Positions 2,743 through 58,966 of a stretch of 64,000 nucleotides of DNA are shown piece after piece (within the stretch, counting starts at the first letter, position 1; the number at the start of each line of letters is the position of its first letter). A program made the position numbers and the translations under genes. Below the pieces are notes generated by a model. The model was not told the DNA's origin. It did no database searches and saw only the letters and a program-made list of their open reading frames with translations. Source of the stretch: a virus; UHGV virus genome UHGV-0141727; one strand, 5' to 3'.

Positions 2743-2788
2743 ATCATACATTCCTGATTAGAAACATCAATTTAATTTTCTAACACAC
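2743..2788 (-). promoter_or_regulatory. promoter-operator of immI-like module 1
   Basis: Minus strand GTGTGTTAGAAAAT-taaaTTGATGTTTCTAATCA-ggaatg-TATGAT. The -35 is TTGATG (2770-2765), the -10 is TATGAT (2748-2743), spacer 16. The palindromic operator overlaps the -35. Confidence 0.6.
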
Positions 2789-2842
2789 AATTACGAGCGA
2801 TGATTTTTCCGCCGCACGGTTATTGTACAGTCAATCGCAACA

Positions 2843-3802
2843 TCATCCCCGAAAGCCCTCCGGAATTGACCAGTCTTCCCGGTCAAATTCAGACCGATAG
2901 CCACGCTGTTTCATCTGGTCAAATGCTTCATTGATGGTTGCACATCCCTGGGAACCAGAATAATCCATAGAGAAATCCAGGGCGCTGGATCGTTTGGGCT
3001 TATTCACCGTGGTAGCACTACGTATCCATGCAAATTTTTTTGCCAGTTTTTCAGCGGTACGATACAGAGCCTGCCGTTTTGCGTACCCCTCGTCTGAACG
3101 ACGCTTTGCAGCTCTCGCTTTTGCCGCCGCCAAACAGTGGTTGGTATGTTCTTCCCTGATTACTGTTTTTTTATCCAGCAAGCCATTATCCGCTTGAGAA
3201 CTATCTGCTGGTGAAGCCTTTGGCTGAACCGCGCATGATCTTTCTCTTCTTTTGGCTATAGAGTGACTCTTATTTTCTATTGGCTGTTCATTTTGAACAT
3301 GGGGGGACTTGTTCAATTTGAACAGGGGGTGCCCAGTTTCAAAAAAATAACGAACCTTTGAAATCAACTGCTTAACCAGTTTTGTGGCGTTGGCAAATTT
3401 GATGCCCTGCTTACTCCCTATCTCCATTGCTACATGAATGAAGTGGAGAAATTGTGTTGTAAACCGGTACACGTTACACACCTGAGCATTGTTATTCGCT
3501 ACCTGATGCTGCTTAACAAGCATTCCGCACTTCGTCGCTTCGGTAAATGCCCGGCGCACAGTAGAAATACTGCGTCCTGTAATCTCGGACATATCAGCAT
3601 ATGAGCGACGGATCATGTATTCATCGGTAGCTCCTGCCAGGTTGGCGAACTCGGCAATAATGGCGCTATGTGAAGGGGAAAGAAAACCGCTATGACGAGC
3701 AAAAAAACTCAACTGATGACCTTTGATTTTTTTGTGGTATTCAGTGTTGTTTTTATACTCAGAAGTGTTGAAAGTTACTGGAACTGAATTTAAAATACTC
3801 AT
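2843..3802 (-). CDS. winged-helix DNA-binding protein of unknown role (possible RepL-like initiator or regulator)
   Basis: 319 aa. HTH-like SYADMSEITGRSISTVRRAFTEATKCGMLV with a basic C-terminal half. Lies between two operator sites; own putative promoter with ATAGATTT direct repeats at 3810-3860. Confidence 0.4.
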   Translation of the reverse strand: MSILNSVPVTFNTSEYKNNTEYHKKIKGHQLSFFARHSGFLSPSHSAIIAEFANLAGATDEYMIRRSYADMSEITGRSISTVRRAFTEATKCGMLVKQHQVANNNAQVCNVYRFTTQFLHFIHVAMEIGSKQGIKFANATKLVKQLISKVRYFFETGHPLFKLNKSPHVQNEQPIENKSHSIAKRRERSCAVQPKASPADSSQADNGLLDKKTVIREEHTNHCLAAAKARAAKRRSDEGYAKRQALYRTAEKLAKKFAWIRSATTVNKPKRSSALDFSMDYSGSQGCATINEAFDQMKQRGYRSEFDREDWSIPEGFRG

Positions 3803-3863
3803 CAGATAGTTCCGTGAAAAATCTATCTACCGTATAAATCTATGCCAGTGGATTTATACACCC

Positions 3864-3896
3864 AAAAGCCGCTACTCAGCGGCTTTTGCTTTTTTG
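3864..3896. terminator. bidirectional rho-independent terminator
   Basis: AAAAGCCGCU-ACUC-AGCGGCUUUU hairpin. Tail is UUUUGCUUUUUU on plus and a U4 tail on minus. Confidence 0.55.
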
Positions 3897-3970
3897 GCAG
3901 TCGCTACCGGAGCAGTGACCGCGATCCTACTCGATCACGTGCCGTCGGATCAACAGTGTATAAAAACACA

Positions 3971-4004
3971 CTGTGTTAGAAAATTAAGCTAGCTTTTAGC
4001 TCAC
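3971..4004. promoter_or_regulatory. operator site (strong left half, degenerate right half)
   Basis: CTGTGTTAGAAAAT at 3971-3984 is identical to the left arm at 42127-42140. The right half CTTTTAGCTCAC matches the consensus at 7/12. Confidence 0.45.
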
Positions 4005-12858: not shown

Positions 12859-13171
12859 ACCCCTCCAGAAATGACGTTTAACGCGGCTTCAACTTATCCA
12901 GTTTGTTATTTCCCGACTAAATGCCATTCACACAAAATGGATGCATATGATGGCCCGGTGGTCCGTAAACCTCGTCACTCAGAGCGTGGAGGATGCCAAA
13001 TTCGCGTATCAACAAAATGGTCCAAACACGGCTTTAAAGAGAAATACGCTTGAATGCGCAAGATGTGAGCTGATTCTTGAGGACAAAATGATGACATGTG
13101 AGTCTTCACAAGCGTCATTCAGTGAATATAATACCGACTCTCTCAGATACTACTAACTGGGTGTTCATTAT

Positions 13172-13207
13172 GCCCGCCGTCATTGACTAGACGGCGGGCT
13201 TTTTTTG
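13172..13207 (+). terminator. strong plus-strand rho-independent terminator
   Basis: GCCCGCCGUC-AUUGACUA-GACGGCGGGC followed by U7. Confidence 0.8.
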
Positions 13208-13322
13208 TGCCGAAGGATAGCGTTGCTCAAAAAAAACACAAAACCGCACGCTAATGAAGCCCTCAACAAAAGAGGGCTTGAAATATCAAAAAAAATAGTG
13301 CTGATTGGATTGTTATGATTGT

Positions 13323-13745
13323 TTATGCAGGCATCTCAGGCCATGAGATATCTGCATCAACAGAAGTGTCAACTCTATTAAGAAGAACTCTATACCTCTT
13401 TAACTTTGTCAACATTTCTATTTCCTCATCAGTGGCAATATCCATATCAACAGCATCCTGAAGCGTTGATATTTTTATGCTCACATCATTCATAAGACTA
13501 CTTTTGGTGTTTTCAGCAATGCTGACTCTCTCCTCTAAGCTCATAGGTTGTGGGTCAGATAACATTGGATAACCATCGCCATTTGCAATTATTATTTTCC
13601 CATTGCCATACCCTGATAACAGTTCATCATATAAGTCATCAGGTATATGTACAGCATCGGACGGCCATGAACCGTTTTTATCGTAATCTTCTTTTAGTCT
13701 ATCGTCGTAGAAACCACCAGTCTCTTTGCTGTAATACTTTGCCAT
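13323..13745 (-). CDS. tail fibre assembly protein (P1 U-like)
   Basis: 140 aa. N-terminal YYSKETGGFYDD... typical of Tfa/gpU-type chaperones, directly downstream of the tail fibre gene. Confidence 0.75.
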   Translation of the reverse strand: MAKYYSKETGGFYDDRLKEDYDKNGSWPSDAVHIPDDLYDELLSGYGNGKIIIANGDGYPMLSDPQPMSLEERVSIAENTKSSLMNDVSIKISTLQDAVDMDIATDEEIEMLTKLKRYRVLLNRVDTSVDADISWPEMPA

Positions 13746-34004: not shown

Positions 34005-34070
34005 GCATTAGAAAAATAATTTTCGTTAACAATCTTGTGTTAGTATGGTTTAATCTTAATTTTCTAACAT
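34005..34070. promoter_or_regulatory. double operator region between capsid gene and plus-strand operon
   Basis: GCATTAGAAAAAT at 34005-34017, plus the palindrome GTGTTAGTATGG-N10-ATTTTCTAACAT at 34037-34070. Confidence 0.55.
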
Positions 34071-34084
34071 AAAACATTAGAACA

Positions 34085-42120: not shown

Positions 42121-42163
42121 GTAAAACTGTGTTAGAAAATAAAACTCAATTATCTAACACAGT
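42121..42163 (-). promoter_or_regulatory. promoter-operator of the rdgC / C5-MTase / dam operon
   Basis: 38-bp palindrome ACTGTGTTAGAAAAT-N8-ATTATCTAACACAGT (1 mismatch). The -35 is TTGAGT at the centre and the -10-like element is TTTTAC at 42126-42121. ATG at 42115 has no SD. Confidence 0.65.
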
Positions 42164-46080: not shown

Positions 46081-46082
46081 CA

Positions 46083-46104
46083 AAGCCCACCTTAAGGTGG
46101 GCTT
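46083..46104. terminator. hairpin terminator between convergent genes
   Basis: AAGCCCACC-UUAA-GGUGGGCUU. The U-rich tail is better on the minus strand (UUGUUAUUUU). Confidence 0.5.
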
Positions 46105-46305
46105 CGCCAGAAATTATTTTCTGGTATTCAGAACGCCATTACCGGACTTTGCCTTGACCAAGTATCACAACTGGTTTGACCTGTTATGATAGCTGGTTGC
46201 GGGATGTCTGAATTTCTTCAGTCTGCTGCATCCTCGAAGGTTTGGTTCAACATGTACCATTCCTTCACCGTCATAATAGTGTACTATTCACGTCCTTGCA
46301 AACAC

Positions 46306-47833: not shown

Positions 47834-47925
47834 AACAGTTCCTCACAGTCATAACCTGTGGGGAACTGTATGCAGGGTGTGAAATGCGGGAAAGCAGCGT
47901 CACCTGGCCTGGTGACGCTGTAAAA

Positions 47926-48207
47926 TTATGCGTGGGAAAATAATGGACGGATGTTTGGGCGAGCGGTTTGCGAAGCAACCCAAAGCTCATACTGGGATTG
48001 CATACCGGTCCACATTTCGGCACTGGTTCCAAGAGCGGACTCCAGACGAAGTGCCATATCAGCAGAAATACCTGTTTTTTCGTTCAGAATTCGGGAAAGT
48101 GCCGTGCGAGTAATGCCTAATGCAGCAGCTGCGTCTGTGACTGACATGTCTCCCAAATATTCACGAAGAACCGCGCCTGGATGCGCGGGATTATGCATAC
48201 GACTCAT
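47926..48207 (-). CDS. higA: HigA-family antitoxin (addiction module antidote), no cognate HigB adjacent
   Basis: 93 aa. [12 protein letters not shown]...[35 protein letters not shown] is the canonical HigA/VapI HTH pattern. Its start overlaps the upstream stop. Confidence 0.85.
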
Positions 48208-48503
48208 ATGTGGAAAGCAACCCGTTTACCGGTTGGCAATTCAACGTCCAGACTCAACTTTCCACCCATAGCCTCAACGTAACGTTTAAGCGTTGCTACT
48301 TTCAAGTCATTGCCTCGTTGTTCAAGTTTTGTGATGGCTGGTTGACTAATTCCCATCGCATCGGCAACTGTTTTTTGTGATAACTGAAGCTCCTCTCTCA
48401 ACATCTGCAATCCGACTTCCAGAATCATTTCATCAGCCTGCTCTTTGATACGAGCTTGGCTTTCAGGGGATTGCGCAGCAATAACTTCTCTTAGAGTTCT
48501 CAT
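48204..48503 (-). CDS. XRE-family HTH antitoxin
   Basis: 99 aa. [25 protein letters not shown]. Overlaps the toxin stop by 1 nt. Confidence 0.75.
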
Positions 48504-48850
48504 TATTTTTTCTCAAGTTCTGCAAGATGGTTGGAAAATTCGTCGTCTGCAATCCGTATCATTCTTTCGTAGAACTTTTTATCGTTACTCTTATCTCCGG
48601 CGCACAGGATTATGGCTTGCCTTACCGGATCAAATGCGAAGAATGCTCTGATAGGGCGACCAGCGTACTGAATCCGTAACTCCTTCATGTTTTTATGGCG
48701 TGAGCCTTTAACTGTGTCGGCATATGGCCTTGATAATGAAGGGCCATATGTTTCCAGATTGATCAGGTCAACCAGGATTTTTTCTTTTAATGCAGGTTCC
48801 TGTTCCTGGAACCATTCATCAAAAATTTTTCCAAAATAAATTTGCCACAT
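48503..48850 (-). CDS. RelE/ParE-superfamily toxin (phage gp49-like/DUF891 type)
   Basis: 115 aa. LKELRIQYAGRPIRAFFAFDPVRQAIILCAGDK is typical of gp49-like toxins. Confidence 0.8.
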   Translation of the reverse strand: MWQIYFGKIFDEWFQEQEPALKEKILVDLINLETYGPSLSRPYADTVKGSRHKNMKELRIQYAGRPIRAFFAFDPVRQAIILCAGDKSNDKKFYERMIRIADDEFSNHLAELEKK

Positions 48851-48870
48851 AGTTATTCAAAATCCTTTTT

Positions 48871-48923
48871 AATAAACTACATGTTATAAACTACAGGTTA
48901 TATCATATAACCTGTAGTTTATA
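48871..48923 (-). promoter_or_regulatory. TA operon operator: perfect 18-3-18 palindrome plus an extra half-site
   Basis: TATAAACTACAGGTTATA-TCA-TATAACCTGTAGTTTATA at 48885-48923. A third copy, ATAAACTACATGTTATA, lies at 48872-48888. Located 35 bp upstream of the toxin start. Confidence 0.7.
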
Positions 48924-48955
48924 TTTTCAAGGCCATTTTTTATTCGATTTAGCAT

Positions 48956-49609
48956 TTAAAGTATCACGGTATCCTCATCAACTTCTTTCCCTGCCAGTGA
49001 CTTTGGCTGGGAGGCTGCTGCTTTAACCTTCTCATGCCCAATAATGGACAGGAACGAGGCCATTATCCCTGCTTTGTTTTCTTTCTCTACCGCTCCTGTC
49101 ATTTGTTTCAGGTAATCCGCGCTGGCAACATTGTGGTATACCGTTGCATAGCAGCACAGAATCATCAGGATGTGCTCTGGTCGGATATCTTGCCAGTTAA
49201 CTCGATAAACCTCTTCACCGTTGCCGTTGTATTCGGTATCGACGATAGAGTCGGGGATCTCAAATGCCCCTTTGTTCTTGTCAGGCAGGGATAGCAGCCT
49301 TTGTAGTTTCAGCTCCCGGTATCTTTCCATGCCGACAATGATCGCCGCTCTGCCGTCGGCGTGCCGTGTTTTTAATGTTACCTGACTGGCACCTGTACCG
49401 GCTGAAATGGTTGGCGTGATTTCGTCAACCAGCACCTTAAATTCACTTTTACGCAGCTCGGCAATTGCTGGTGGAATTTTTCGTTTTTGTTCAATAGCAG
49501 ATGCAGGGAGCGGCTTTACTTTGTCAATTACAAGCGCGCCGTCTTTCAGGACTGCCGTAGCCATCAGCGGCTTGTTAGTCGAAAGGCTGAATATTGCGAT
49601 CTTTTGCAT
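48956..49609 (-). CDS. hypothetical protein
   Basis: 217 aa. Preceded by a minus-strand terminator, so probably has its own promoter. No family recognised. Confidence 0.5.
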   Translation of the reverse strand: MQKIAIFSLSTNKPLMATAVLKDGALVIDKVKPLPASAIEQKRKIPPAIAELRKSEFKVLVDEITPTISAGTGASQVTLKTRHADGRAAIIVGMERYRELKLQRLLSLPDKNKGAFEIPDSIVDTEYNGNGEEVYRVNWQDIRPEHILMILCCYATVYHNVASADYLKQMTGAVEKENKAGIMASFLSIIGHEKVKAAASQPKSLAGKEVDEDTVIL

Positions 49610-49634
49610 GGCTTTTACTCCACGATAGCAGGCA

Positions 49635-49660
49635 CAAAAAAAGGCCGCACATGGCGGCCT
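49635..49660 (-). terminator. rho-independent terminator (minus strand)
   Basis: AGGCCGC-CAUGU-GCGGCCU followed by U7 on the minus strand. Confidence 0.6.
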
Positions 49661-49874
49661 GCTTTGGCGTTATGACTCCCTACCGCGCATCGGCTGAAAG
49701 TTAGTCGTCAAAAGAACCTTCAACGGGAGCCGTTTGCGTAATGGATTTTGTCCAGATTGTGATTTCCAGAATAGTGTCAACAATTTTTTTGAATTTTTTA
49801 TTCGCTCTGAATTTGGCCTAGGTCATTTTGGCGTAGATGTTTGCTTTTGTAACATAAAGCTTCAGTTTGTTTAC

Positions 49875-50498
49875 ATGAAGGATGGTTTTGTGAAGTTAAG
49901 GGTTTTGGGAGCAGTGCTCGCGGTTATATTGGGGGGAGTTTCTCTTAATGCTGCCTATGCAGGCGCGTTACCTGCAAAGTATGAGGCTGGGCTGAAGGTG
50001 TTACGAAACGCCAAAACAAACTATACGCCTGATGAAGTTTCAAACTATTGCCAGAAAGAAAATATCCCACTGAAACCTGTAGAGCCATTCTTTAAAAGCA
50101 ACATAGAGTTCTGTGTATTTGCGTATGCAGCAGATGAAACAGGAAAGGCCATACAAAAGACAGGGTATTCCACCAAAGACACAATGTCAGTGTTAAGTAA
50201 CGGCGTGTTGCAGTTTGAGCTTTATCGTCAGCAAGGAATGGGAGATCTATTGCAGCCTTTGTATGGTCTAGCATTGGTGCCGGAAGGTCAGCAGTTTCTG
50301 ATCAAAAAAGGCCTCATGAGGCAGGAAGATGTAGCTGGTTTCGATGCCATCGTTGCCTATGAAAAACAACTCAAGGAACAGCGCAATAAAAAACCATCTG
50401 CCTCATGCGTGCAAAGCAAAACAGCAGAATACAGCGCAGTGGCTGGGCCTTTAGCCCCACAAATGGCAGAGCAATGGTGTAAACAATACGGGCAATAA
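49875..50498 (+). CDS. secreted (periplasmic) protein, unknown function
   Basis: ORF 49734..50498; start MKDGFVKLRVLG at 49875. Signal peptide ...VSLNAAYA|G. Confidence 0.55.
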   Translation: MKDGFVKLRVLGAVLAVILGGVSLNAAYAGALPAKYEAGLKVLRNAKTNYTPDEVSNYCQKENIPLKPVEPFFKSNIEFCVFAYAADETGKAIQKTGYSTKDTMSVLSNGVLQFELYRQQGMGDLLQPLYGLALVPEGQQFLIKKGLMRQEDVAGFDAIVAYEKQLKEQRNKKPSASCVQSKTAEYSAVAGPLAPQMAEQWCKQYGQ

Positions 50499-50518
50499 GT
50501 TACGCAGCGGAGGCAGAA

Positions 50519-50911
50519 TTGAAAAGATTAGCTATTGCTTTATTGGCAGCTTTCCCTTTGATCGCTCACGCCGGGAATTTACAAGTGAAGTGCGGTAGGT
50601 TTGATATAAAAATCTATCCGAACGCCATATTTCTGAATGGGAATAAGGTCGATAACGCGCACCGGAAAACTGAATCTGACGTAATGAGCTATGTGTTCCA
50701 GGAGTATGCCGAGATGGGGGGAACTTACACGTTGTACTCGCTGGATGTTCCATCTCGCGGTGATATGACGTTATCTCATCAATGGCAGAACGCCGATGGC
50801 GAAGCTCTGCGCGAGGTTAAAACAGAAAAATGTGGCACTTTCCATTCTTTTAAAGGGAAAGCGCCCAATGTTAAATCTACGCTTGAAAAACAGCGTGCTG
50901 GTGAGCTTTAA
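50519..50911 (+). CDS. secreted (periplasmic) protein, unknown function
   Basis: 130 aa, TTG start 6 nt after GGAGG. Signal peptide MKRLAIALLAAFPLIAHA|G; two Cys in the mature part. Confidence 0.55.
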   Translation: MKRLAIALLAAFPLIAHAGNLQVKCGRFDIKIYPNAIFLNGNKVDNAHRKTESDVMSYVFQEYAEMGGTYTLYSLDVPSRGDMTLSHQWQNADGEALREVKTEKCGTFHSFKGKAPNVKSTLEKQRAGEL

Positions 50912-51246
50912 ACCCCTTTAATCACGGAGATTTCGTTTCCCGCACGATAGCGGCGGGGAACGGAACTCTCCATCAGGTCACGAATTACTCCCGCTTCACG
51001 CAGTTCCTCTGTCTCCCAGTATCTGTTTGTCACCAGGTCAAGGCTGGCAATGACTTTATGCCGGTCATTCGGCATTGCTTCTTTTTCAGCCATTATCATC
51101 AGTGAGAACTCTTCATCCAGTAGAATTTGATACCAGACTTTTGACAGTTCCAACTCTCTAATGAGGGTGAAGCGCCGCTCAATTGTGGCAGCAGAATAAG
51201 TGAAATCTATTTTTTTGGTGGCATACATTTTGCTGTGTCCGGTCAC
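50908..51246 (-). CDS. hypothetical protein
   Basis: 112 aa. Its stop overlaps the convergent stop of 50519..50911. Confidence 0.45.
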   Translation of the reverse strand: MTGHSKMYATKKIDFTYSAATIERRFTLIRELELSKVWYQILLDEEFSLMIMAEKEAMPNDRHKVIASLDLVTNRYWETEELREAGVIRDLMESSVPRRYRAGNEISVIKGV

Positions 51247-51258
51247 TTAGTAGTTAAA

Positions 51259-51277
51259 GCCCCGGCATGACCGGGGC
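51259..51277 (-). terminator. hairpin after immI-like module 2 (weak U tail)
   Basis: GCCCCGG-UCAUG-CCGGGGC. The stem is related to the module 1 terminator at 1272-1290. Confidence 0.35.
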
Positions 51278-51285
51278 AAAAGCTA

Positions 51286-52227
51286 TTAACTAATAATCCA
51301 GTCGGTTGCTGCTACATCTTCTGGCTGCAAATCAATCGCACAGATCTTACCGTCGCGAATGGTGCGCCAGTTTTTCCGTGAGCCTCTTTCGGGCCATACC
51401 CAGACACTTTCAGGCCAGGATGCTCGACGGCATACGGTTGCATACCCTGTTTTAATCTTCTCTCTGGCGGTATGCAACGACAGGTTTGCCTTTGGACTTT
51501 CAGGCACAGGATGGTGAATGGCCTGAAATAGCCCCATCTTGGGATGATACCAGCGTTTGTTACGTGGTTCTGCCTCCGACATAACCTGCTTAAAGGCTTT
51601 CCGGAAGGGGGCCAGGGCCACAATGGAACGTCGCGCAAGCAAACCGTCGGGAGTTAAAAACTCATGCGTATCAGTGGGTATCCGGTAAGCGTTGACCAGG
51701 TTACGGCATTTGGCTTCAGTCAGGCCACATTTCGCCGCCAACTGGCGGTAGCCAATGTAGCCTTCCGGAATATTGCCTTTCTTGATCTGCTCGACGGTTT
51801 CAGCGACTTTGGACACTTGTGCCGATACTTCGGCTACCTGGGCATTAACGGCGTTGATCCGGCGTTCATGCTCAAGATGCATTTGCGCCATTTCAGCCAG
51901 AATTTCGGCTTTTGATTTTAACTGTGCCCGGGCATTCTCCAGTTCGCGCCAGCGGTCCACCAGCCGGGCGGTGAATTCGGGAGAGAGCTGCGCGACGACA
52001 ATAATGCTGTCTCGTTTGCCTTGCTCGCCTTCAAAGACATAGACCGGATCTTTGACAACCTTCCCTAAGTTATTGATTCTTTCGACGAACTCATTTTGAG
52101 TTTCTCGGATGACACCGCTCGCCATCATATTGCGAATGGTACGTAAAACGTTGCCATGACGACTACCAACTAACTCTGCAATATCCAGGCTATTCATTGT
52201 AGCTTTTTGGGTGATAGACAGATTCAT
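51286..52227 (-). CDS. Rha-family antirepressor fused to C-terminal DUF2829/Tad2-like domain (immI-like module 2)
   Basis: 313 aa. N-terminus NSLDIAELVGSRHGNVLRTIRNM. The middle is about 90% identical to 1496..2203. C-terminus REKIKTGYATVCRRASW...DLQPEDVAATDWIIS parallels ORF 1299..1496. Confidence 0.7.
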   Translation of the reverse strand: MNLSITQKATMNSLDIAELVGSRHGNVLRTIRNMMASGVIRETQNEFVERINNLGKVVKDPVYVFEGEQGKRDSIIVVAQLSPEFTARLVDRWRELENARAQLKSKAEILAEMAQMHLEHERRINAVNAQVAEVSAQVSKVAETVEQIKKGNIPEGYIGYRQLAAKCGLTEAKCRNLVNAYRIPTDTHEFLTPDGLLARRSIVALAPFRKAFKQVMSEAEPRNKRWYHPKMGLFQAIHHPVPESPKANLSLHTAREKIKTGYATVCRRASWPESVWVWPERGSRKNWRTIRDGKICAIDLQPEDVAATDWIIS

Positions 52228-52442
52228 CAGTGCACCTCCACGCAGTTCATTGGTAGATTCCAGTAATTGAGGATCTCCATCGCATCAAGAGTGAAGCGTG
52301 CGGCAAAAATGCAGGGTTCTTCGGGAAGGTATGAGCGCGCCTCTGCTTCGGTAGCAGCCATTACGCAGATATAGAGGTGTTTTTGGCAGGAATAGAAACG
52401 CCAGATAAATTCAGAATGAGTTGGGGTAGGGATAGTAGCCAT
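52227..52442 (-). CDS. icd: Icd-like small protein
   Basis: 71 aa. EFIWRFYS...AATEAEARSYL. AAGGAGG SD. Stop overlaps the antirepressor ATG (TGATG). Confidence 0.65.
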   Translation of the reverse strand: MATIPTPTHSEFIWRFYSCQKHLYICVMAATEAEARSYLPEEPCIFAARFTLDAMEILNYWNLPMNCVEVH

Positions 52443-52502
52443 ATTGGCAGCCTCCTTTGACTAAGTTAAGGAGCTACCGCGTGAGGTTCCAATCTCAATG
52501 GC

Positions 52503-52578
52503 GGTAGCACTGACTGGGTTGGAACTACCGGCGTCAAAGGGAACCGGCCTGCCTTTCGGCAGCCCAGCCAGCACTACC
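52503..52578 (-). ncRNA. c4: c4-like antisense RNA (module 2)
   Basis: 76 nt with a 16-bp closing stem (GGUAGUGCUGGCUGGG / CCCAGUCAGUGCUACC). Contains a GCC-GAAA-GGC hairpin and a 5-bp hairpin with a 12-nt loop carrying CCUUUGAC. Single-stranded GUUCCAA follows, and 3' GCCA. Complementary boxes lie at 52681-52675/52664-52657 and 52492-52486/52461-52454. Confidence 0.65.
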
Positions 52579-52626
52579 ATTGATCTCTGAGCTAAACGCT
52601 ACGTATGGCTGTGCGATGGCATGACA

Positions 52627-52650
52627 CAAAAAAAGACGCTTTCGGCGTCT
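52627..52650 (-). terminator. rho-independent terminator between the a1/b1 boxes and the c4-like RNA
   Basis: Minus strand AGACGC-CGAAA-GCGUCU followed by U7. Confidence 0.7.
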
Positions 52651-52755
52651 GTGTCGCCTTTGACATTATCCGGGGTTCCAATCCCGGCACCCGTTTTTCT
52701 AAGGTGCCGTAGAAATATACCCCACGATAATGCCAGGGCGCAACTGTGTGTTTTC

Positions 52756-52923
52756 TTATGCTTTTCTTTTCTTCTTTTGGGCTTGCTTGCAAGCGTAGGC
52801 CATTGCTTTAGCTTTCACTTCATCCAGCTTCCCGGTGATCACTTCTTTTCCAAGAGTGACAAACCAATCATAGCAACCGCCAGTGATGTTCTGGATTTGA
52901 AAGTTGAGGTAGCGAACGGTCAT
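52756..52923 (-). CDS. small hypothetical protein (55 aa), not in the ORF track
   Basis: ATG 52923 after GGGGGTG. Sequence MTVRYLNFQIQNITGGCYDWFVTLGKEVITGKLDEVKAKAMAYACKQAQKKKRKA. An upstream 29-codon ORF (53009-52920) ends in an ATGA overlap. Confidence 0.35.
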   Translation of the reverse strand: MTVRYLNFQIQNITGGCYDWFVTLGKEVITGKLDEVKAKAMAYACKQAQKKKRKA

Positions 52924-53208
52924 TTTGACACCCCCAGCGCGAGTAAAGAATGCAGATTATCGCGTGAGTGGCGGACAACGAGTGATGGGAAAAGACAGTA
53001 GCTGTTCATAGTGTAGTGACTCCTTGCTTTTGGAGCCGCCATCGACTGTTCCACGGTCTGGTGGCGGCGCAATAAAGGTTGGAACACCGTGAGTCAACGG
53101 GGGCTTTTCAGCCACCTATATTGCACCGCCATTGGTATGGCGGCGGCAATCATACGAAAAACCAAACGGTTTGTCTCAAAAAGTTGACCGGTGTACCAAT
53201 CGGTTGTG

Positions 53209-53256
53209 AATGTACAACGGTGAATTTCACAATTCAACTTAAAATGTTAGAAAACT
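53209..53256 (-). promoter_or_regulatory. promoter of immI-like module 2 with upstream operator half-site
   Basis: Minus strand GTTTTCTAACAT (53255-53244), then 6 nt, then TTGAAT (53237-53232), N17, TACATT (53214-53209). The spacer contains the palindrome GTGAAATTCAC. Confidence 0.5.
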
Positions 53257-53830
53257 AATTTATTAATTCAGTCACCATCTGATACAACGTCATTTCATCG
53301 GCATTGTGCCGCCTGAAATCTGCTTTGCCGCCTATTTTTCCATCAGCATGAACAGGGACCAACCAGGGGTATTGCTCGCGTATCTCTGCTGGCGCTGCGT
53401 GTTGATGGTGCCATTTACACAAAGGGAGAACGTATTTATGCGCGTTCTCTGCCGTTCTCCCGAAGATGTGGTGCAGGGATACCACAGGGCTATGCTGTCC
53501 GTGCATATGGCAGGCAATGCAGGGGAGAGCACCGATGGCAGTTTGTATCCGGCGCTCATCTGCTGTGAGCGTTCTGCCTTTCAGGCCACGTGACGTGCGC
53601 GTTTTTTTGACTGGAGCAGAAGCGGCCTTCTCTTTTCTTCGCTGTTCATATTGCTTCGCTTTTTCAATTTTCTTTTGCCGATATTCAGGCGATGCAGCCT
53701 TTTCTCGCGCACGCTGCTGCTGGCGTTGAGCTTGCTGAAGACGCTTTGCCCTTTGTTCCTCCCGCCATTTCGGATCAGCCAGTTTTTTCAGGGCTTTTTG
53801 CGTCTGTTTCTCCCAATAGCTTTGCTTCAT
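53255..53830 (-). CDS. ref: Ref-like HNH endonuclease (P1 recombination enhancement function)
   Basis: ORF 53255..53872 has a TTG start; ATG 53830 is likelier. Basic disordered N-terminus, then RGLKGRT..ERRI...GALPCIACHMHG...SLHHI.GRT...LPLCKWHHQHAAPAEIREQYPWLVPVHADG, closely matching recalled P1 Ref. Confidence 0.8.
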   Translation of the reverse strand: MKQSYWEKQTQKALKKLADPKWREEQRAKRLQQAQRQQQRAREKAASPEYRQKKIEKAKQYEQRRKEKAASAPVKKTRTSRGLKGRTLTADERRIQTAIGALPCIACHMHGQHSPVVSLHHIFGRTAENAHKYVLPLCKWHHQHAAPAEIREQYPWLVPVHADGKIGGKADFRRHNADEMTLYQMVTELIN

Positions 53831-53873
53831 AGAAATACCCGGTTTGTCTACATCGCCGCTATGGTTGATCAAA

Positions 53874-53920
53874 TGTGTTAGAAAATCAAAATTGATTTTC
53901 TAACACAAAATGAAGATACT
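53874..53920. promoter_or_regulatory. best-conserved promoter-operator (divergent: ref / plus-strand early operon)
   Basis: Perfect 15-bp arms TGTGTTAGAAAATCA-aaat-TGATTTTCTAACACA at 53874-53907. Plus-strand promoter is TTGATT (53892-97), N17, GATACT (53915-20). Confidence 0.7.
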
Positions 53921-54101
53921 TTTTTCGGACGCTATATCAGGAGGTCATGATGCTTGTCGCAATAAGTGCAATCCACCAGCAATCCGGTACAGAAATTGGG
54001 TTGCTATATGCCCTGTTTTTCACTGTCCTGGCGTTGTTTGAGCTGGGTATTGAACTCTTTGCTCTCATTAACTTTTGCGTAACGTTCCTGGGGAAACTTT
54101 G

Positions 54102-54713
54102 ATGGCTATACGCATTATGAAAATTTACATCGCGGGTCCGATGACTGGTTATCCCGACTACAACCGCACAGCGTTTTTTTCGAAAGCAAAAGAGCTGATG
54201 GAGGAAGGGCATATTGTTCTGAATCCGGCGCTGTTACCTGCTGGCCTCTGCCAGAGCGAATACATGGATATTTGCCTTGCTATGGTGCGTTCGGCTAATG
54301 CGGTCTATTTGCTCAAGGGGTGGGAGGAATCAGTTGGCGCTCGTGCAGAGCACGAGCTGGCTCAAAAGCTGGGGCTGAATGTAATTTATGAGTCACCAAC
54401 CAACATTGAATGCCAGGTTGCTCCGCATATTTACCGGGAACTGGTCAATGCACTGCGTGATATCGCTGCTGTATATCACGGCACAGAACAGCTTCGTGAG
54501 CGTTTAGCCCATACCATTTCCTATTACCTGTCTGCATCTCATGAGCACAAGCTCCGTCAGAAGGTAATGATCAAATTTATCATGAGGTTATCGAAATCCC
54601 TGGCAAACGCCGATCCAAAGAATCCATTACCGAAAGTGGCAATGAATTACCTGAAGTCCTGCAACATTGTTTCTGAAGATGGCGTTCTTTTGGTTAGAAG
54701 GAGTTCTGCGTGA
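54102..54713 (+). CDS. DUF4406 / nucleoside 2-deoxyribosyltransferase-like protein with C-terminal extension
   Basis: ORF 54075..54713. MKIYIAGPMTGYPDYNRTAF...VLNPA...W(E)ES.GA..E matches the DUF4406 signature. Start at 54102 or 54117. Confidence 0.65.
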   Translation: MAIRIMKIYIAGPMTGYPDYNRTAFFSKAKELMEEGHIVLNPALLPAGLCQSEYMDICLAMVRSANAVYLLKGWEESVGARAEHELAQKLGLNVIYESPTNIECQVAPHIYRELVNALRDIAAVYHGTEQLRERLAHTISYYLSASHEHKLRQKVMIKFIMRLSKSLANADPKNPLPKVAMNYLKSCNIVSEDGVLLVRRSSA

Positions 54714-55027
54714 GCTGGCGGGGATGGGGAAGGGCAGAAATCATGATACTCCGCCAGTGCGCCGGGACTATGACAGTCGAGGGTATTGGGAGACTGATCG
54801 GGCGTACCGGTGGTGCTGTCAGGACTAAAGCGCGGCAATTGCGGATCAGCATGATTCTGAAAGGTGACTTTCACCAGTCAGCCAAATACCGGCAGAGCGA
54901 TATAGAGCTGGCGCGGCAGCTTCATCAGTGTGGCGTTCCCCGCCGTGAGATCGCAGAAAAACTCGAAATGCCCTTGGGCATGATTAATCAGTACGTTTAT
55001 TTCGAAAGGAGAGTGCATGAAGTCTGA
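54710..55027 (+). CDS. small HTH-containing protein
   Basis: 105 aa, GTG start (GTGA overlap). Two HTH-like segments (MTVEGIGRLIGRTGGAVRTKARQL; PRREIAEKLEMPLGMINQYV). Confidence 0.45.
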   Translation: MSWRGWGRAEIMILRQCAGTMTVEGIGRLIGRTGGAVRTKARQLRISMILKGDFHQSAKYRQSDIELARQLHQCGVPRREIAEKLEMPLGMINQYVYFERRVHEV

Positions 55028-55520
55028 AGGTTTAACGCCCGCACAACTGGCAGAGCGTAACGCTGAGTATGTAACGGAAATTTCCCGACTTGAGAAAGAG
55101 CGCGCGGCGCTGGCGGCGGAGAATGCACTTGCTCGTAAAGCTGTTCAGGCATTCTGTGATGTTGTTGGCGACAACACTGAGATTATCTCCGAGTTGGTTG
55201 GGCGAGATGGCGTTCTGGTTATTTTGGAGGCCATGAAAGTAACAGGAAATATGCCAGCCACCGACGCTTTCCTGGCTGAAATACGTGCGGAGGCACGCAA
55301 CGAGGGGATTAACTACACCGCAAGCCGCCTTGCTGCCGCTTTCAACCACGGATTTATCAATAAGTCTTTACGTGAAGTTTTCGACGTTACACGCATGATT
55401 CTGTCAGCGAAAGAAGAGTTGGCTAATGAACCGCACCCAATTGATGGCCTGTCCGGTGAATATGCGGAGAAATCCCTTGAAGAATGGGCGGAACAGATTC
55501 GCAAAGGAGTTCAGTCATGA
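55017..55520 (+). CDS. ead/Ea22-like family protein
   Basis: 167 aa. ERAALAAENA coiled coil and the [13 protein letters not shown] motif, shared with 56701..57411. Confidence 0.55.
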   Translation: MKSEGLTPAQLAERNAEYVTEISRLEKERAALAAENALARKAVQAFCDVVGDNTEIISELVGRDGVLVILEAMKVTGNMPATDAFLAEIRAEARNEGINYTASRLAAAFNHGFINKSLREVFDVTRMILSAKEELANEPHPIDGLSGEYAEKSLEEWAEQIRKGVQS

Positions 55521-55750
55521 GCATCCGAACTGAACATGGATTTGGTCCGTCAACGGTCGAAGTCGAATGGCTTGATGATTGCCCTAAGTGCCAGCACGGC
55601 AAAGCCAAGGTAACAGGATGGTCGGTAACCAAAGATTCTTTGTGGGCGGGTGATGAGGCCGTCTGTTCCAAATGCGGTCACAAAGGCGAAATCGATGCTG
55701 ATGGAGAGAATGCCTGGGTGGAATGGGACGAAATCGAGGAGGCACAATGA
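55517..55750 (+). CDS. small zinc-ribbon protein
   Basis: ORF 55484..55750; MSIRTEHG start after GGAG. CPKC...CSKC. Confidence 0.45.
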   Translation: MSIRTEHGFGPSTVEVEWLDDCPKCQHGKAKVTGWSVTKDSLWAGDEAVCSKCGHKGEIDADGENAWVEWDEIEEAQ

Positions 55751-56379
55751 GCAATATCGACACACTGGCGCTGCGTGAGGCGGCAGAACGTGCAATTCCG
55801 GCAATGGAACGCCTGTTAATGTTGCCAGTTGATGATGATCTGATAAGTGAACAGGAACTTAAAGATTACGGTGTGGATATTGATGCGCTCAACGCCTTCA
55901 AATTTCTGGCCGGACCAGAAACCGTGCTGGCACTACTGGATGAACGGGAAAGAAACCAGCAATACATCAAACGCCGTGACCAGGAGAACGAGGATATTGC
56001 GCTAACGGTAGGGAAGCTGCGTGTTGAGCTTGAGGAAGCAAAATCAAAACTCAACGAGCAACGCGAGTATTACGAAGGTGTTATCTCGGATGGGAGTAAG
56101 CGTATTGCAGAACTGGAAGCACGGGAAATAAAACCAGCCAAAGGTGAAGTTCTTGTCGTTGTTTCTGGTTTTACTGGTTGCGGAAAAAGCGCCATTGCCG
56201 GGGAAATAGAAATCGCGATGAAGGCTATTGGTGTACCGGTTCAGTGGACTAATGGCGATGCGGAAAAGCGCATGACAGGAGCTGACTGGCTGACAGCAAT
56301 TGAGATGTACAAACCAACTGTGCGCATCGTGGAAGTTAATGTGCCACGCGCCCCTGGCATTCGCATCAAAGGAGAGTGA
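55747..56379 (+). CDS. Ea22-like N-terminal module fused to a short P-loop-containing C-terminus
   Basis: ORF 55723..56379; start at 55747 after GAGGAGG. The N-terminus is paralogous to 60980..61732. C-terminus has GFTGCGKS (Walker A-like). Confidence 0.5.
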
Positions 56380-56380
56380 G

Positions 56381-56704
56381 ATGACCACATCGCATTCTGC
56401 AATCACCCAGGAAAAAGTATTTCGCTTGCTCGAACGTCTGGAGGCGCTCGCCACGGAGGAGGATATATCCCCGGAGATGCTGGTCGAGTGCAGCCGTGTG
56501 ATATTGCGTCGCAAGAACGACATCGCGCGGCTGACATCCGGCGCACCATCCGTATCAGCCAGTCCAACGCTTTATTGCAGCTTCTGCAACAAATCCCAGC
56601 ACACCGTTAAAAAGTTAATTGCCGGTGACAACGTTTTCATCTGCAACGAGTGCGTGAAAGATTGCAACAACATTATCCAGGAAGAGCAAAGGGAATCAGC
56701 ATGA
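56381..56704 (+). CDS. stand-alone ClpX-type C4 zinc-finger (ZBD) protein
   Basis: 107 aa. C-terminal [39 protein letters not shown] is near-identical in pattern to the ClpX N-terminal [29 protein letters not shown]. Confidence 0.8.
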
Positions 56705-57411
56705 AATTTTCCAAATTTTCTGAGTTGGTGAATCGTATTTTGTCCAACAACCACAGCCATCGTCGCGATATGGATGTAACAATCGTTATTCATTCGCCTG
56801 GCAGCATTGGTTCAACACCTTCAGTTGAGGTTCAGTCAATTCACGCTGGTTTTGATTGGGATTCCGGGAAAGTGCTGATTTTCCCAGCACAGCCACTGAC
56901 CGCGCTAACACCAGAACAGATTACTGATATCACGGATAGTGTGCGCAAAGGTCAGTCTTGGCACGCATATCAGGAATACAAGAAGCATAAAGAGCAGTTG
57001 GAAAAATTGTCGATTGAACTTGATGCTGCAAGACGGCGCATTACAGAACTGGAGAGCGAACGCGCGGTGCTGGCGGCGGAGAATGCGGATCTGAAGTCTG
57101 TGCACCCTCAACCATTCGGAGCTGAGATGATGAAGGCTCTTGATGCGTATGAGAAGCATCAGGATGAAGTGCCAGAGACTGGAATGCTCAATGCATTTTT
57201 CATCTTGCGCGACAGTATCCGTGTTGACACCCCAGCCACCGATGCTTTCCTGGCTGAAGTACGTGCGCAGGGCGTGGATATGGCTCGTAACGCGATGATT
57301 GATTTTGTCGATGGTGAAGTTGGTCCAAACAAGAATGTTCCGGGGCTGATTAGAGGCGCAGAGATATGCGTAAGTATTGCTGAACAGCTTCGCAAAGGAG
57401 GCAGCCAGTGA
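56701..57411 (+). CDS. ead/Ea22-like family protein
   Basis: ORF 56650..57411; ATGA-overlap start at 56701. [13 protein letters not shown] and [17 protein letters not shown]. Confidence 0.55.
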
Positions 57412-57683
57412 ATATCGACACGACAATAACGATCGATACGCTCCTAAATTCCGGTCTGGCACTTCTCGGTTGGCTTTACATCATGTCCCGTACATGGCGA
57501 TGGCTGGGTTCCATTTTCCTGAAACAGTGGAAAAAACGGCGCAAACATGAACTACGCCAGAAGGCATTAGAAGCGTTCTATGACGCATTTGAACTTGGCA
57601 GCATTGAACCAGGCACAACAGCGAGGATAGCGACAAAAGGCGACCTGATGATAGTGATGTTCAGACAGGAGAAAACAAAATGA
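57408..57683 (+). CDS. small membrane protein
   Basis: 91 aa, GTG start. TM segment LLNSGLALLGWLYIM. Confidence 0.4.
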   Translation: MNIDTTITIDTLLNSGLALLGWLYIMSRTWRWLGSIFLKQWKKRRKHELRQKALEAFYDAFELGSIEPGTTARIATKGDLMIVMFRQEKTK

Positions 57684-57904
57684 CAGAACAGACGATGACA
57701 AATCGCGAACTTGTTGATGCCGCGATTGAACTTGCTGGCGATTTTTATTCCATGATGGGTTACGAACATCGTCCTGGTTTTAAGTATTGGGAGTCACCGC
57801 ATCCGCAAGAACAACAGGTGTTTGAAATGGCCTGCCGTGCTTTTGAGGTTATTCGCGGTTCTGATGTGATGGAGGCCGTTGCCGACTTGGAGGATGAAGA
57901 GTGA
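57680..57904 (+). CDS. hypothetical protein
   Basis: 74 aa. GGAG SD with 4-nt overlaps on both sides. Confidence 0.45.
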   Translation: MTEQTMTNRELVDAAIELAGDFYSMMGYEHRPGFKYWESPHPQEQQVFEMACRAFEVIRGSDVMEAVADLEDEE

Positions 57905-58212
57905 GCATCATTGTAGAAATGCCGGTAGAACGTGATGAATATGGCTGCTGGACACATCCGGAGTATGAAAAGTTTTGCGCAGGTCGTGAATATATATCCA
58001 CTGAGGAATTTGACGCCTGGATGAAGGAAAATAATCTTCAGTGGACTATTCGCAGTATGGATGAAGATGATTTTAATCTGGACGCAGATGGCCCCGATAT
58101 TGCCGCCTGGGAACCAGAGCGACCAGAGGGCGAAGGCTGGTTTGTTGGCTCTATTCATGACACTGAAGATGGTCCGGTTTGTATCTGGCTGCGGGAGAAG
58201 GTTGCCGCATGA
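57901..58212 (+). CDS. hypothetical acidic protein
   Basis: 103 aa, GTG start, operon packing. Confidence 0.4.
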
Positions 58213-58895
58213 CCCAGGTGCTGCATGAAGTGAATTTATATAGCCGTATTGATGGTTCAGGCTACAGAAACATATGGGTTGTTGGTGATTTGCACGGTTG
58301 CTACACCCTACTTATGAATGAACTCCATCGTGTGGATTTTGACCCTACACAGGATTTACTGATATCGGTTGGCGACCTTATCGATCGCGGCACCGAAAAT
58401 GTTGAATGCCTGGAGCTATTGCAGATGCCCTGGTTTCGGTCGGTTATGGGAAACCACGAGCGATTAATGATCGATGCGTTAAGTCCCGCAGGCAACGTGA
58501 ATAACTGGCTAATGAATGGTGGTCAATGGTTCTTCATGCTGGACGCTGATCGGGAAATATTAGCCAGGGCGCTGGTGGAGCTGGTAAGACGTTTGCCCTA
58601 TATCATTGAGCTGAACACCGGGCATGAAACTATCGTTATAGCCCATGCCGACTATCCTGATAACGAATACCAGTTTGGTAAACCTGTTAGCGATCTCAAT
58701 GTTACCTAGCGGCGTGAGCGATTTTATGACGCGGTTGATGGTGTTGGTGGAATAATCACTGGTGCAGATAGCTTTATTTTCGGGCATACGCCAGTAAGCA
58801 GCCCGAAATCTTTCTGGAACCAGCACTACATAGACACTGGTGCGGTTTTTTGCGGAAATCTGACGCTAAAGCAGGTGAAGGTAGGGCAGTCGTAA
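58209..58895 (+). pseudogene. lambda-type Ser/Thr protein phosphatase interrupted by one in-frame TAG
   Basis: GDLHGC, GDLIDRG and GNHE motifs in 58209-58706. TAG at 58707-58709. The same frame continues RRERF...[11 protein letters not shown]...[14 protein letters not shown] to TAA at 58893-58895. Confidence 0.8.
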
Positions 58896-58926
58896 TCCTG
58901 AACACATCGTTTATGCACTCAAAATG

Positions 58927-58966
58927 ATGTTAGAATATTGATTTTAATTTTCTAACAGATTATTTT
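58927..58966 (+). promoter_or_regulatory. promoter-operator of the 59000+ operon
   Basis: ATGTTAGAATAT-N8-ATTTTCTAACAG. The -35 is TTGATT (58938-43), N17, TATTTT (58961-66). Confidence 0.6.

Follow-up and report, generated by a model that had tools for sequence, protein, structure and literature searches.

Sites of one 17-bp family lie between the genes of virus genome UHGV-0141727 in the 64,000-nucleotide stretch analysed here (the window), and they very probably constitute the predicted operator set of a D6-type homologue of the phage P1 repressor C1, whose gene lies outside the window. A sequence-only reading had already proposed that operators of a C1-like immunity repressor, encoded elsewhere, control several early units, and every test that we ran backs this view. 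The window is part of a D6-like, P1-related phage-plasmid (plasmid prophage). Its nearest complete plasmid is E. coli pEC361_3, with 98% identity to the window; phage D6 is ~85% identical, has the same gene order, encodes proteins that are 55-100% identical, and carries the same operator motif at the same positions. The window lineage (pEC361_3 type) differs from D6 in its cargo genes (the sroH region and the simB slot), in a cin remnant, and in the ref/orf88 site, which is perfectly bivalent in this lineage but has only its right arm strong in D6. Both belong to a widespread group of plasmid prophages of E. coli, Salmonella and Shigella, and the C1 type of D6-like elements is present in 153 plasmid records. 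In the full texts searched, no description of the D6 operators was found.

An asymmetric 17-bp intergenic site

The sequence GTTAGAAAA or its complement occurs eight times in the window (at 2776, 3975, 34060, 42131, 53246, 53877, 53896 and 58948) compared to 0.57 expected, and none of 100 shuffles reached eight. With genes named by D6 homology, all eight copies are intergenic, the copy at 53246-53254 adjoining the ref stop codon (53255-53257). Thus, the excess, the placement and the coordinates had been reported correctly. The functional unit is an asymmetric site of ~17 bp with the consensus TGTGTTAGAAAAYTAAW. Using a weight matrix (PWM), we found 14 matches scoring at least 12 in the window versus 1.2 in shuffles; 13 sites score at least 14, every one of them intergenic. 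Among these 13 are weaker candidates that start at 666, 34004, 36899 and 49840. Compared to the 13 matrix sites of the window, D6 has 19 and pEC361_3 has 23. Equal frequency in coding DNA had been named as an observation that would count against the proposal; in D6, which is 90% coding, 17 of the 19 sites fall in the non-coding 10.2% of the genome.

Five sites had been described as full palindromes. Two of these, 42126-42163 (arms matching at 13/13 and 12/13 positions) and 53874-53907 (13/13 and 13/13), are indeed two-armed, each with an 8-bp gap, but the left arms at 58927 (10/13), 34037 (9/13, with a 10-bp gap) and 2754 (7/13 in register) match less well. Single-strand folding, taken as a measure of dyad symmetry, gave z-scores of -7.2 at 53874, -6.1 at 42126 and -4.8 at 58926, while dyad symmetry by this measure was not significant at 2754 (z -1.65) or 34036 (z -1.2). 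The only true two-armed sites are therefore 42128-42161 and 53874-53907, in which two 17-mers abut head to head. Because relatives do not keep the second arm, and conservation falls on the single half-site, 'palindromic' and 'bound dimer', as the sequence-only reading had it, are poor general terms; a single asymmetric 17-mer suffices. A lambda-type dimeric repressor with palindromic operators was likewise rejected, since only two to three sites are symmetric, their second arms are unconserved, and the related plasmid pJBIWA008_2 lacks pairs.

The two excellent 34-bp palindromes, together with the fixed spacing of TTAGA-N16-TCTAA (4 to 5 per E. coli-type genome) and the several predicted DNA-binding proteins encoded in the window, might suggest that the palindromes are targets of another regulator of the element, such as a dimeric helix-turn-helix protein, and that the single half-sites are incidental. 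We think this unlikely, as it is the single half-sites that relatives keep. In pJBIWA008_2 we found 13 motif copies but no N16 palindrome or paired site, and this plasmid is also without orf72, orf90, the pmgF-like regulator, the Rha/Ant proteins and the HTH antitoxin. Furthermore, the sites match the experimentally defined positions of P1 C1 operators.

Promoters and units at the sites

The sites, with the promoters and units beside them, are as follows.

666..682, + strand: TCTGTTAGATAATACAT, a weak candidate operator flanked by darB and an orf16-like gene; PWM 16.0
1299..2680, - strand: unit immI-1 (Rfam RF03163 and RF01695 above the gathering score; homology to D6 orf17-19), comprising the a1/b1 target element 2628-2680, C4 antisense RNA 2475-2560, an icd-like gene, ant 1496-2203 and orf17 1299-1511
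2743..2770, - strand: predicted sigma-70 promoter of immI-1, TTGATG-16-TATGAT, starting directly after the operator
2754-2770: degenerate partner arm of the 2771 site; 7/13 match
2771..2787, - strand: TGTGTTAGAAAATTAAA, a strong operator half-site preceding the first c4-icd-ant cassette (immI-1); PWM 27.7
2843-3802, - strand: repL, lytic replication gene
3972..3988, + strand: single operator ~170 bp upstream of repL; PWM 26.4
34004-34020 and 34036-34052: weaker sites near orf52; PWM 16.2 quoted for the locus
34055..34071, - strand: operator 14 bp upstream of orf52-orf53, in a region divergent from capsid gene 23; PWM 25.3
34085-34947, + strand: orf52-orf53
42128..42161: bivalent operator, 42128-42144 (+) abutting 42145-42161 (-); PWM 25.3 and 19.9
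Downstream of 42128..42161, - strand: hrdC/rdgC 41210-42115, an orf64-like gene and dam/dmt 39636-40670
49840..49856, - strand: weak candidate operator, core GTTACAAAA; PWM 18.0
50908..52707, - strand: unit immI-2 (Rfam matches; homology to D6 orf81-83), comprising an isrK-like RNA 52629-52707, a second C4 RNA 52497-52584, icd2 52227-52442, ant2 51286-52227 and a pmgF-like gene 50908-51246
53237-53232 (TTGAAT), 17-bp spacer, 53214-53209 (TACATT): leftward promoter of immI-2, with the operator 5 bp upstream
53243..53259, + strand: single operator overlapping the ref stop codon; PWM 23.9
53874..53907: perfect bivalent operator, 53874-53890 (+) and 53891-53907 (-); 15-bp arms; PWM 26.0 and 26.4
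53892-53897 (TTGATT), 17, 53915-53920 (GATACT): rightward promoter of orf88
58926-58942: weak partner arm of the 58943 site; PWM 7.5
58938-58943 (TTGATT), 17, 58961-58966 (TATTTT): pdcB promoter
58943..58959, - strand: operator filling the promoter spacer upstream of pdcB; PWM 24.1
59000-59995: pdcB (DUF968) and downstream genes

A strict promoter scan yielded promoters at two sites only, and further promoters came from a relaxed comparison of three genomes. At five sites (hrdC, pdcB, orf88, immI-1 and immI-2), conserved promoter elements lie on the operator or directly beside it. By neither approach did we find a convincing promoter at orf52, repL or ref. The arrangement proposed earlier, with a -35 in the centre of the site and a -10 just beyond one arm, holds for immI-1, orf88 and pdcB. 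It does not hold for hrdC (TAGAAA-17-GATAAT, conserved in three genomes), whose -10 lies inside the right arm of the operator, or for immI-2, where the operator precedes the -35. The -10 of immI-1 is kept in D6; the immI-2 promoter is conserved and takes the form TTGACA-17-TACAAT in pJBIWA008_2; and the pdcB promoter, like its operator, is kept in three genomes, with 10/12 positions retained in pJBIWA008_2.

Several of these sites have positional counterparts among the operators of P1. The site at 2771..2787, which is kept in D6, corresponds to Oc4/Op51; the repL site, of which a diverged copy is found at the same position in D6, to OrepL/Op53; and 42128..42161 to Odmt/Op68. The position of 53243..53259 equals that of Omat, at the end of ref. 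The perfect bivalent site separates ref (- strand; its end is at 53255) from the rightward early operon orf88...ppp (53947-58709), and is the counterpart of Oref and, for the operon ending in ppp, of Oppp. The orf52 operator, whose core is kept in D6 and pJBIWA008_2, has no P1 counterpart. All of the controlled units that had been listed are correct, but the list was incomplete and should include repL (site 3972-3988) and the second c4-icd-ant cassette (site 53243-53259). Two C4 RNA genes, the a1/b1 element and the icd/ant pairs lie downstream of the 2771 and 53243 sites. For the orf64-like gene, earlier called a C5 methyltransferase, we obtained no Pfam match.

Two weak candidates deserve separate mention. 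The one at 49840..49856 is intergenic once the start codon is corrected, lying between mat and a secreted-protein-like gene, 34 bp ahead of the latter's GTG start (49890), and D6 has TATGTTATAAAAATAAT at the same place; because the invariant G of TTAGA is lost, its function is doubtful. The candidate at 666..682 is probably nonfunctional, since it was not found at that position in D6 or pEC361_3.

Given that the sites are A+T-rich and adjoin promoters, they might be targets of a host factor (IHF, Fis, H-NS or CRP) or A+T-rich promoter or UP elements, with no dedicated repressor. H-NS has in fact been reported at the P1 ref regulatory region (PMC4713147). We consider this very unlikely. The motif is found upstream of the -35, in the spacer or over the -10, whereas a promoter element would stay fixed, and its information content, ~21 bits over 17 bp, far exceeds that of host nucleoid-protein sites. 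In addition, the P1 and D6-type motifs differ in the same host, E. coli, and the motif tracks the C1 clade.

A recognition box for the late-gene activator Lpa, as part of late promoters, would fit the observations that P1 late promoters have a conserved box upstream of the -10 and that just two recognisable regulators, c1 and lpa, are common to all genomes with the D6-type motif. (Small conserved proteins without known function are likewise common to all of them, and one of these might be the binder instead.) Yet GTTAGAAAA sites were not found at late operons; they front early genes, lpa and c1. Taking as the criterion for an Lpa-dependent late promoter a box at ~-22 plus a -10 before a late operon, the late (morphogenesis and lysis) operons carry their own box, AAATCACA; the conserved element that fronts prt, R-S, upfC, gene 7, mat, lydA and gene 26 is GAAATCACAAACTGGATAAGCT. 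This assignment is highly improbable. The P1 late-promoter box itself, AAGTKACT...TANNNT, was rejected as well: it is not enriched in the window, where the element uses its own box.

The C1 repressor and its relation to P1

In keeping with the sequence-only reading, which identified no repressor gene, the window does not contain c1 (best tblastn E 0.23). The search for a C1 homologue outside it, which had also been suggested, was successful: in pEC361_3 and D6 we found a true but distant homologue of P1 C1, 345 aa long (D6-type versus P1, 21% identity, E 1e-7; both PHROG 1678), and the pEC361_3 protein is 80% identical to that of D6. In both elements an operator is located 13 bp before the c1 start codon, which is an autoregulatory position. 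Because c1 lies outside the window, the link between C1 and the motif rests on near-identical and related complete plasmids. The D6-type C1 scores 24.6 bits against the NCBIfam equivalog NF041318 (phage_rep_C1), far below the cutoff of 500, compared to 607.5 for P1 C1; a Pfam search with C1 gave no match, and the protein database gives PF27008 for the family.

In the complete relatives, the motif is almost solely non-coding and lies at the positions of annotated P1 C1 operators, namely at c1, lpa, c4-icd-ant, repL, hrdC-dmt, both ends of ref, and pmgS/R, giving positional orthology with Oc4, OrepL, Odmt, Oref, Omat, Oppp, Olpa, OpmgR and Oc1. Among the window, D6 and pJBIWA008_2, ATTTTCTAACA is a perfectly kept island in otherwise diverged intergenic DNA. 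Across C1 clades the motif varies, being ATTGCTCTAAT in P1, ATTTTCTAACA in the D6 type and AATTCTAAGG in the Citrobacter/Pantoea clade, with the TCTAA core and the site positions retained. Plasmid pJBIWA008_2, whose C1 is 40% identical, keeps GTTAGAAAAT in 13 copies, and in plasmids whose C1 is ~30% identical the same promoters carry CCTTAGAAT(T) or CTTAGATTT, with no D6-type sites found. This four-clade comparison shows specificity drifting around a fixed TTAGA core, with the wiring of the regulon unchanged.

P1 has ~22 dispersed asymmetric 17-bp operators, with repL and lpa among the controlled genes (PMC8546580); C1 control extends to ref, ssb, dmt, kilA and ban (PMC4713147). The D6-type system resembles that of P1/P7 in having a master repressor with ~20 dispersed asymmetric 17-bp operators, a few of them paired, in its targets (c1, lpa, repL, c4-icd-ant, hrdC-dmt, ref, the end of ref, and pmgS/R), in the C4 RNA, icd, ant architecture downstream, and in the TCTAA core. 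The sequence-only reading was right on this core and in naming ref and immI as C1-controlled in P1, where they are so annotated. The systems differ in that the D6-type repressor is 62 residues longer, and in that its paired 17-mers abut (TTAGA-N16-TCTAA), whereas those of P1 overlap by 6 bp (TCTAA-N8-TTAGA). Moreover, the window element has two immI cassettes and no kilA. The P1/P7 operator consensus ATTGCTCTAATAAATTT has no match in the window even with up to three mismatches, and the similarity between the P1 and D6-type matrices, taken alone, does not reach significance (p = 0.36), their best alignment being anchored on TCTAA. With a different operator sequence and no P1 consensus in the window, the two systems should be heteroimmune. 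Judged by sequence, the element works like the P1 system outside the P1/P7 immunity group, and its C1 and operators most likely represent a known kind of system in heteroimmune form, with a distinct site sequence.

Homology, position and covariation lead us to infer that C1 binds these sites and represses by binding, with one monomer per 17-mer. In a lysogen, C1 made from a gene just outside the window would occupy each TGTGTTAGAAAAYTAAW site, most of them single and two of them head-to-head pairs, and would block RNA polymerase at early promoters. The units silenced in the window would be both c4-icd-ant antirepressor cassettes, repL, hrdC-dam, ref, orf88-ppp, the pdcB operon and orf52-53; outside it they would be lpa, pmgS/R, the cre-distal operon and c1 itself. 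Upon loss of C1 activity, all would switch on together. The site list is then the predicted early (immunity-controlled) regulon of these plasmid prophages, and operator sequence should determine mutual exclusion among them.

Possible likeness of C1 to Tus, and a second repeat family

Such a regulon is useful yet expected for a P1 relative; of wider interest, if true, would be a Tus-like fold of its repressor. Tus binds Ter as a monomer, and tus is autoregulated at TerB. Both systems have long asymmetric recognition sites, and TerB, TATGTTGTAACTAAA, precedes the tus ATG by 12 nt, just as TATGTTAGAAAACTAAA, in the same orientation, precedes the c1 ATG by 13 nt. We raise the possibility, tentatively and as somewhat less probable than its opposite, that P1- and D6-type C1 may be Tus-fold proteins that read long asymmetric sites, with c1 and its proximal operator as the counterpart of tus and TerB.

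A structural model of C1 (built on 11 sequences), compared to Tus, whose fold comprises two alpha/beta domains connected through strands in contact with DNA, gave TM-scores of only 0.35-0.42. Sequence similarity was not detected (hhalign probability 0.2%, no PDB profile match), C1 had no match to the Tus family PF05472 even at E 10, and the viral structure library BFVD contained no match to C1. The family consensus operator does not resemble Ter significantly (p = 0.33); the resemblance is significant (p < 0.003) only for an operator variant picked after the likeness had been noticed. The full-text literature search did not find a C1-Tus link. The proteins also differ in that C1 is a transcriptional repressor with ~20 sites and is not known to arrest replication forks.

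If the prediction is true, a classic phage repressor would be linked to a replication fork trap. The Tus-like fold would account for the reported asymmetry of P1 C1 binding, supplying a structural reason for asymmetric operators, and would suggest a common origin of the enterobacterial fork-trap protein and the phage-plasmid repressor family; it would also raise the question of polar replication-fork blocking by C1-operator complexes.

The other repeat families are accounted for by the late-promoter box described above and by RepB iterons. A second intergenic k-mer family in the window, TTGACTAT, consists of the iterons around a RepB-type rep gene and is unrelated to the motif.

The element and its repeated intergenic motif

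The window is part of a phage D6-type plasmid prophage, a distant relative of phage P1. Positions 40000-60000 share ~85% identity with phage D6 over 77% of their length and show a 98% match to the complete E. coli plasmid pEC361_3 (NZ_AP027414.1, 90,284 bp). The map is colinear with that of D6, and ORFs were named by homology to D6. Starting at darB, it continues with ant-icd, repL, genes for head and tail, a RepB-type replicon and the par genes; then follow dmt-hrdC, tail genes again, mat, another ant-icd, ref, an early operon whose last gene is ppp, and pdcB with what lies beyond.

A sequence-only reading had drawn attention to an excess of the 9-mer GTTAGAAAA, said to be entirely intergenic. 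Both observations hold: there are 8 copies versus 0.57 expected, a count reached in 0/100 shuffles, and all 8 lie outside genes, the copy at 53246 abutting the ref stop codon. Alignment of all copies in the window, pEC361_3 and D6 revealed a conserved unit that is longer than the 9-mer and asymmetric (TGTGTTAGAAAAYTAAW, 17 bp, about 21 bits); one 17-mer of this kind is TGTGTTAGAAAATTAAA, with the core TTAGA. At a weight-matrix score of at least 12, we observed 14 sites in the window versus 1.2 in shuffles. Equal frequency inside coding DNA of full genomes would have spoken against an operator, and in the full-genome relatives the motif is mostly not in coding DNA. In D6, 17 of 19 matrix matches are intergenic although 89.8% of the genome is coding, and among the 14 copies of the 9-mer in pEC361_3 the sole one in an annotated gene is inside darB. 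Beyond the window, a site directly precedes c1, 13 bp from the ATG of that gene; others occur upstream of lpa, around pmgS/pmgR and beside cre.

The same reading had described five full palindromes. Two of these, 42126-42163 and 53874-53907, do have two good arms; the other three do not, with left-arm matches at 10 (58927), 9 (34037) and 7 (2754) of 13 positions. Dyad symmetry is significant only at 53874, 42126 and 58926, and the true two-armed sites consist of exactly two head-to-head abutting 17-mers (TTAGA-N16-TCTAA). The set is properly one of asymmetric operators of 17 bp, of which two are paired, and not a family of palindromes.

Correspondence with P1 operators and the candidate repressor

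In P1, C1 binds ~22 dispersed operators, whose consensus ATTGCTCTAATAAATTT is asymmetric, and has repL and lpa under its control (PMC8546580); C1 control has also been shown for ref, ssb, dmt, kilA and ban (PMC4713147). Using operator positions from the annotation of the P1 record, we found that the genes at P1 C1 operators match those at the D6-type sites one by one.

P1 C1 operators and their D6-type counterparts
Oc4 (c4-icd-ant): 2771
OrepL: 3972
Odmt (uhr-hrdC-dmt): 42128/42145
Oref: 53874/53891
Omat (overlaps ref at its end): 53243 (overlaps the stop codon of ref)
Oppp (operon ending in ppp): rightward promoter at 53891
Olpa, OpmgR and Oc1: counterparts outside the window

The window holds two antirepressor cassettes, both complete and each encoding a C4 antisense RNA of its own. 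Rfam searches placed a C4 gene downstream of both immI-type sites and an a1/b1 target element downstream of the first. As in P1, the immI order is operator, promoter, a1b1, c4, icd, ant.

RNAs of the antirepressor cassettes
2475-2680: a1/b1 element, then C4
52497-52707: isrK-like RNA, then C4

When the window, D6 and pJBIWA008_2, an Enterobacter plasmid (C1 40% identical), were aligned together, ATTTTCTAACA formed a perfectly conserved block amid diverged intergenic DNA at every site tested, and the second arm of each proposed palindrome is not conserved. pJBIWA008_2 carries 13 copies of GTTAGAAAA at orthologous promoters. The D6-type matrix had no match in a Citrobacter or a Pantoea plasmid (C1 about 30% identical); these show intergenic enrichment of CCTTAGAAT(T) or CTTAGATTT, at the same positions as the D6-type sites (c1, lpa, rdgC, ref, cre-distal, pmgS and repL). 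Thus, the positions and the TTAGA core are fixed while the flanks vary with the C1 clade, a pattern that is the one expected of a repressor co-evolving with its operators. Given the positional match to P1 together with this conservation and covariation, the motif set very probably comprises the operators for an immunity repressor of C1 type in a D6-like plasmid prophage; the main interpretation put forward from sequence inspection stands. On this reading, immI-1, immI-2, repL, hrdC-dam, ref, orf88-ppp, pdcB and orf52-53 would be derepressed jointly when c1 is inactivated or the lysogen induced, with transcription starting at the predicted promoters.

If the motif were instead a host-factor site, P1 and D6, which share E. 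coli as host, would not be expected to differ; the variation of the flanks with C1 clade disfavors this explanation. Nor does the motif look like a box for the late-gene activator Lpa, because the late operons prt, R-S, upfC, gene 7, mat, lydA and gene 26 share a different element, GAAATCACAAACTGGATAAGCT, which also precedes an orf16-like gene.

Positions of GAAATCACAAACTGGATAAGCT
731 (+), 6744 (-), 17548 (-), 36743 (-), 45444 (-), 49758 (-); variants near 12890 and 47870

This element is distinct from the late-promoter box of P1, AAGTGACTT, and is probably the D6-type late-promoter (Lpa) box, so that Lpa is accounted for separately. Binding by another DNA-binding protein encoded in the window is likewise disfavored: the only recognisable regulators in all three genomes with the D6-type motif are c1 and lpa, and the window's other predicted DNA-binding proteins are missing from pJBIWA008_2.

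The c1 gene is absent from the window, in agreement with the earlier reading. A C1 homologue sought outside it was found in pEC361_3 (345 residues, 80% identical to D6 C1). Compared with P1 C1, this D6-type C1 shows 21% identity across 241 residues (E 1e-7), and both belong to PHROG 1678. Because it scores 24.6 bits with the NCBIfam P1 C1 equivalog model, versus a cutoff of 500, it is a homologue of P1 C1 and not its equivalent. Since the window lacks the operator consensus of P1, P1 and D6-type phages should be heteroimmune; elements of the GTTAGAAAAT group are predicted to be homoimmune among themselves and heteroimmune to those of the CCTTAGAAT and P1 groups. D6-type C1 and its operators belong to a well-known kind of system, and the D6 operators have possibly been published already.

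Operator placement, paired sites and the predicted fold of C1

It had been suggested that a -35 lies in the center of each full site and a -10 just beyond one arm. A strict scan supported this only at 2754-2788 (TTGATG-16-TATGAT); at hrdC it returned a different promoter, TAGAAA-17-GATAAT. A relaxed scan compared across the three genomes gave five conserved operator-promoter arrangements.

Conserved operator-promoter arrangements
immI-1: -35 begins where the operator ends
immI-2: operator 5 bp upstream of TTGAAT-17-TACATT (TTGACA-17-TACAAT in pJBIWA008_2)
hrdC: -10 GATAAT inside the operator
orf88: -35 TTGATT inside the operator
pdcB: operator occupies the TTGATT-TATTTT spacer

Neither the strict nor the relaxed three-genome scan gave a clear promoter for repL, orf52 or ref. 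Operator placement relative to the promoter varies in the P1 annotation too. The stretch separating the operator of repL from its start codon also contains a G+C-rich hairpin of 11 bp with a T run behind it (3863-3888); this could terminate a small transcript running rightward or act as an attenuator in the leader of repL.

P1 bivalent operators consist of two 17-mers with a 6-bp overlap (TCTAA-N8-TTAGA), and the Pantoea clade has paired sites of the same arrangement. Unlike P1, the E. coli D6-type elements have TTAGA-N16-TCTAA, 4 to 5 per genome and essentially only with that spacing. With this spacing the cores are separated by 21 bp, roughly two helical turns, and two C1 molecules bound at such a site may be able to touch. 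A second recurrent arrangement, TCTAA-N9-TTAGA, has a short TTAGA after a strong operator; several relatives show it at orf52, pmgS/R and the cre-distal site, and it may represent another type of paired site.

Occurrences of TCTAA-N9-TTAGA
Window: 34063-34086
pEC361_3: 23422, 68116
D6: 10325, 54211, 89936

The C1 family is without a solved structure and without a model in the Pfam copy searched. An AlphaFold model of D6-type C1, built from a shallow alignment of 11 homologues (mean pLDDT 82.5, pTM 0.49), was compared with the PDB by Foldseek. The only significant matches were four E. coli Tus-Ter complexes (E 5e-8 to 2.5e-6, probability 1.00, ~305 columns, TM 0.35-0.42), the next match having E 0.12. 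Tus recognises the asymmetric Ter site as a monomer, and at TerB it represses the tus gene. In the MG1655 sequence, TerB (TATGTTGTAACTAAA; sequence confirmed in PMC4499146) lies 12 nt before the tus ATG, and TATGTTAGAAAACTAAA lies 13 nt before the ATG of D6-type c1 in the same orientation. No sequence similarity between C1 and Tus was detectable, and the resemblance of the operator to Ter is significant only for a variant chosen after seeing it (consensus p = 0.33). A link between Tus and C1 was not found in the literature searched. As a lead rather than a finding, the predicted fold suggests that D6-type C1 may be Tus-like.

Other features of the element

The other abundant intergenic repeat, separate from the operator motif, is a set of iterons around the rep gene, with 5 direct copies upstream and 6 downstream in both orientations.

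Iteron arrays
25190-25300 and 26260-26490: ~21-bp repeats, AATGTTGACTATGTGCGATTT-like, flanking the RepB-family replication gene at 25373-26257

Arrays and gene form the plasmid origin and copy-control region. Chi (GCTGGTGG) occurs 27 times in the window (positions 1933 to 61495) versus 1.9 expected, 18 of the 27 on the minus strand; pJBIWA008_2 has 69 copies. At 45541-46267, a match to sroH RNA (113 bits) adjoins a 179-aa ORF, for which the pEC361_3 annotation gives a stationary-phase growth adaptation protein. This region is a cargo slot, in which D6 has a toxin-antitoxin pair and two other genes. The tail-fibre genes are strongly unlike those of D6 (65% identity along part of S, 32% for the U-like gene), and the cin invertase gene is apparently cut down to a 71-aa remnant (12941-13745); the invertible tail-fibre segment may have been lost or fixed in this element.
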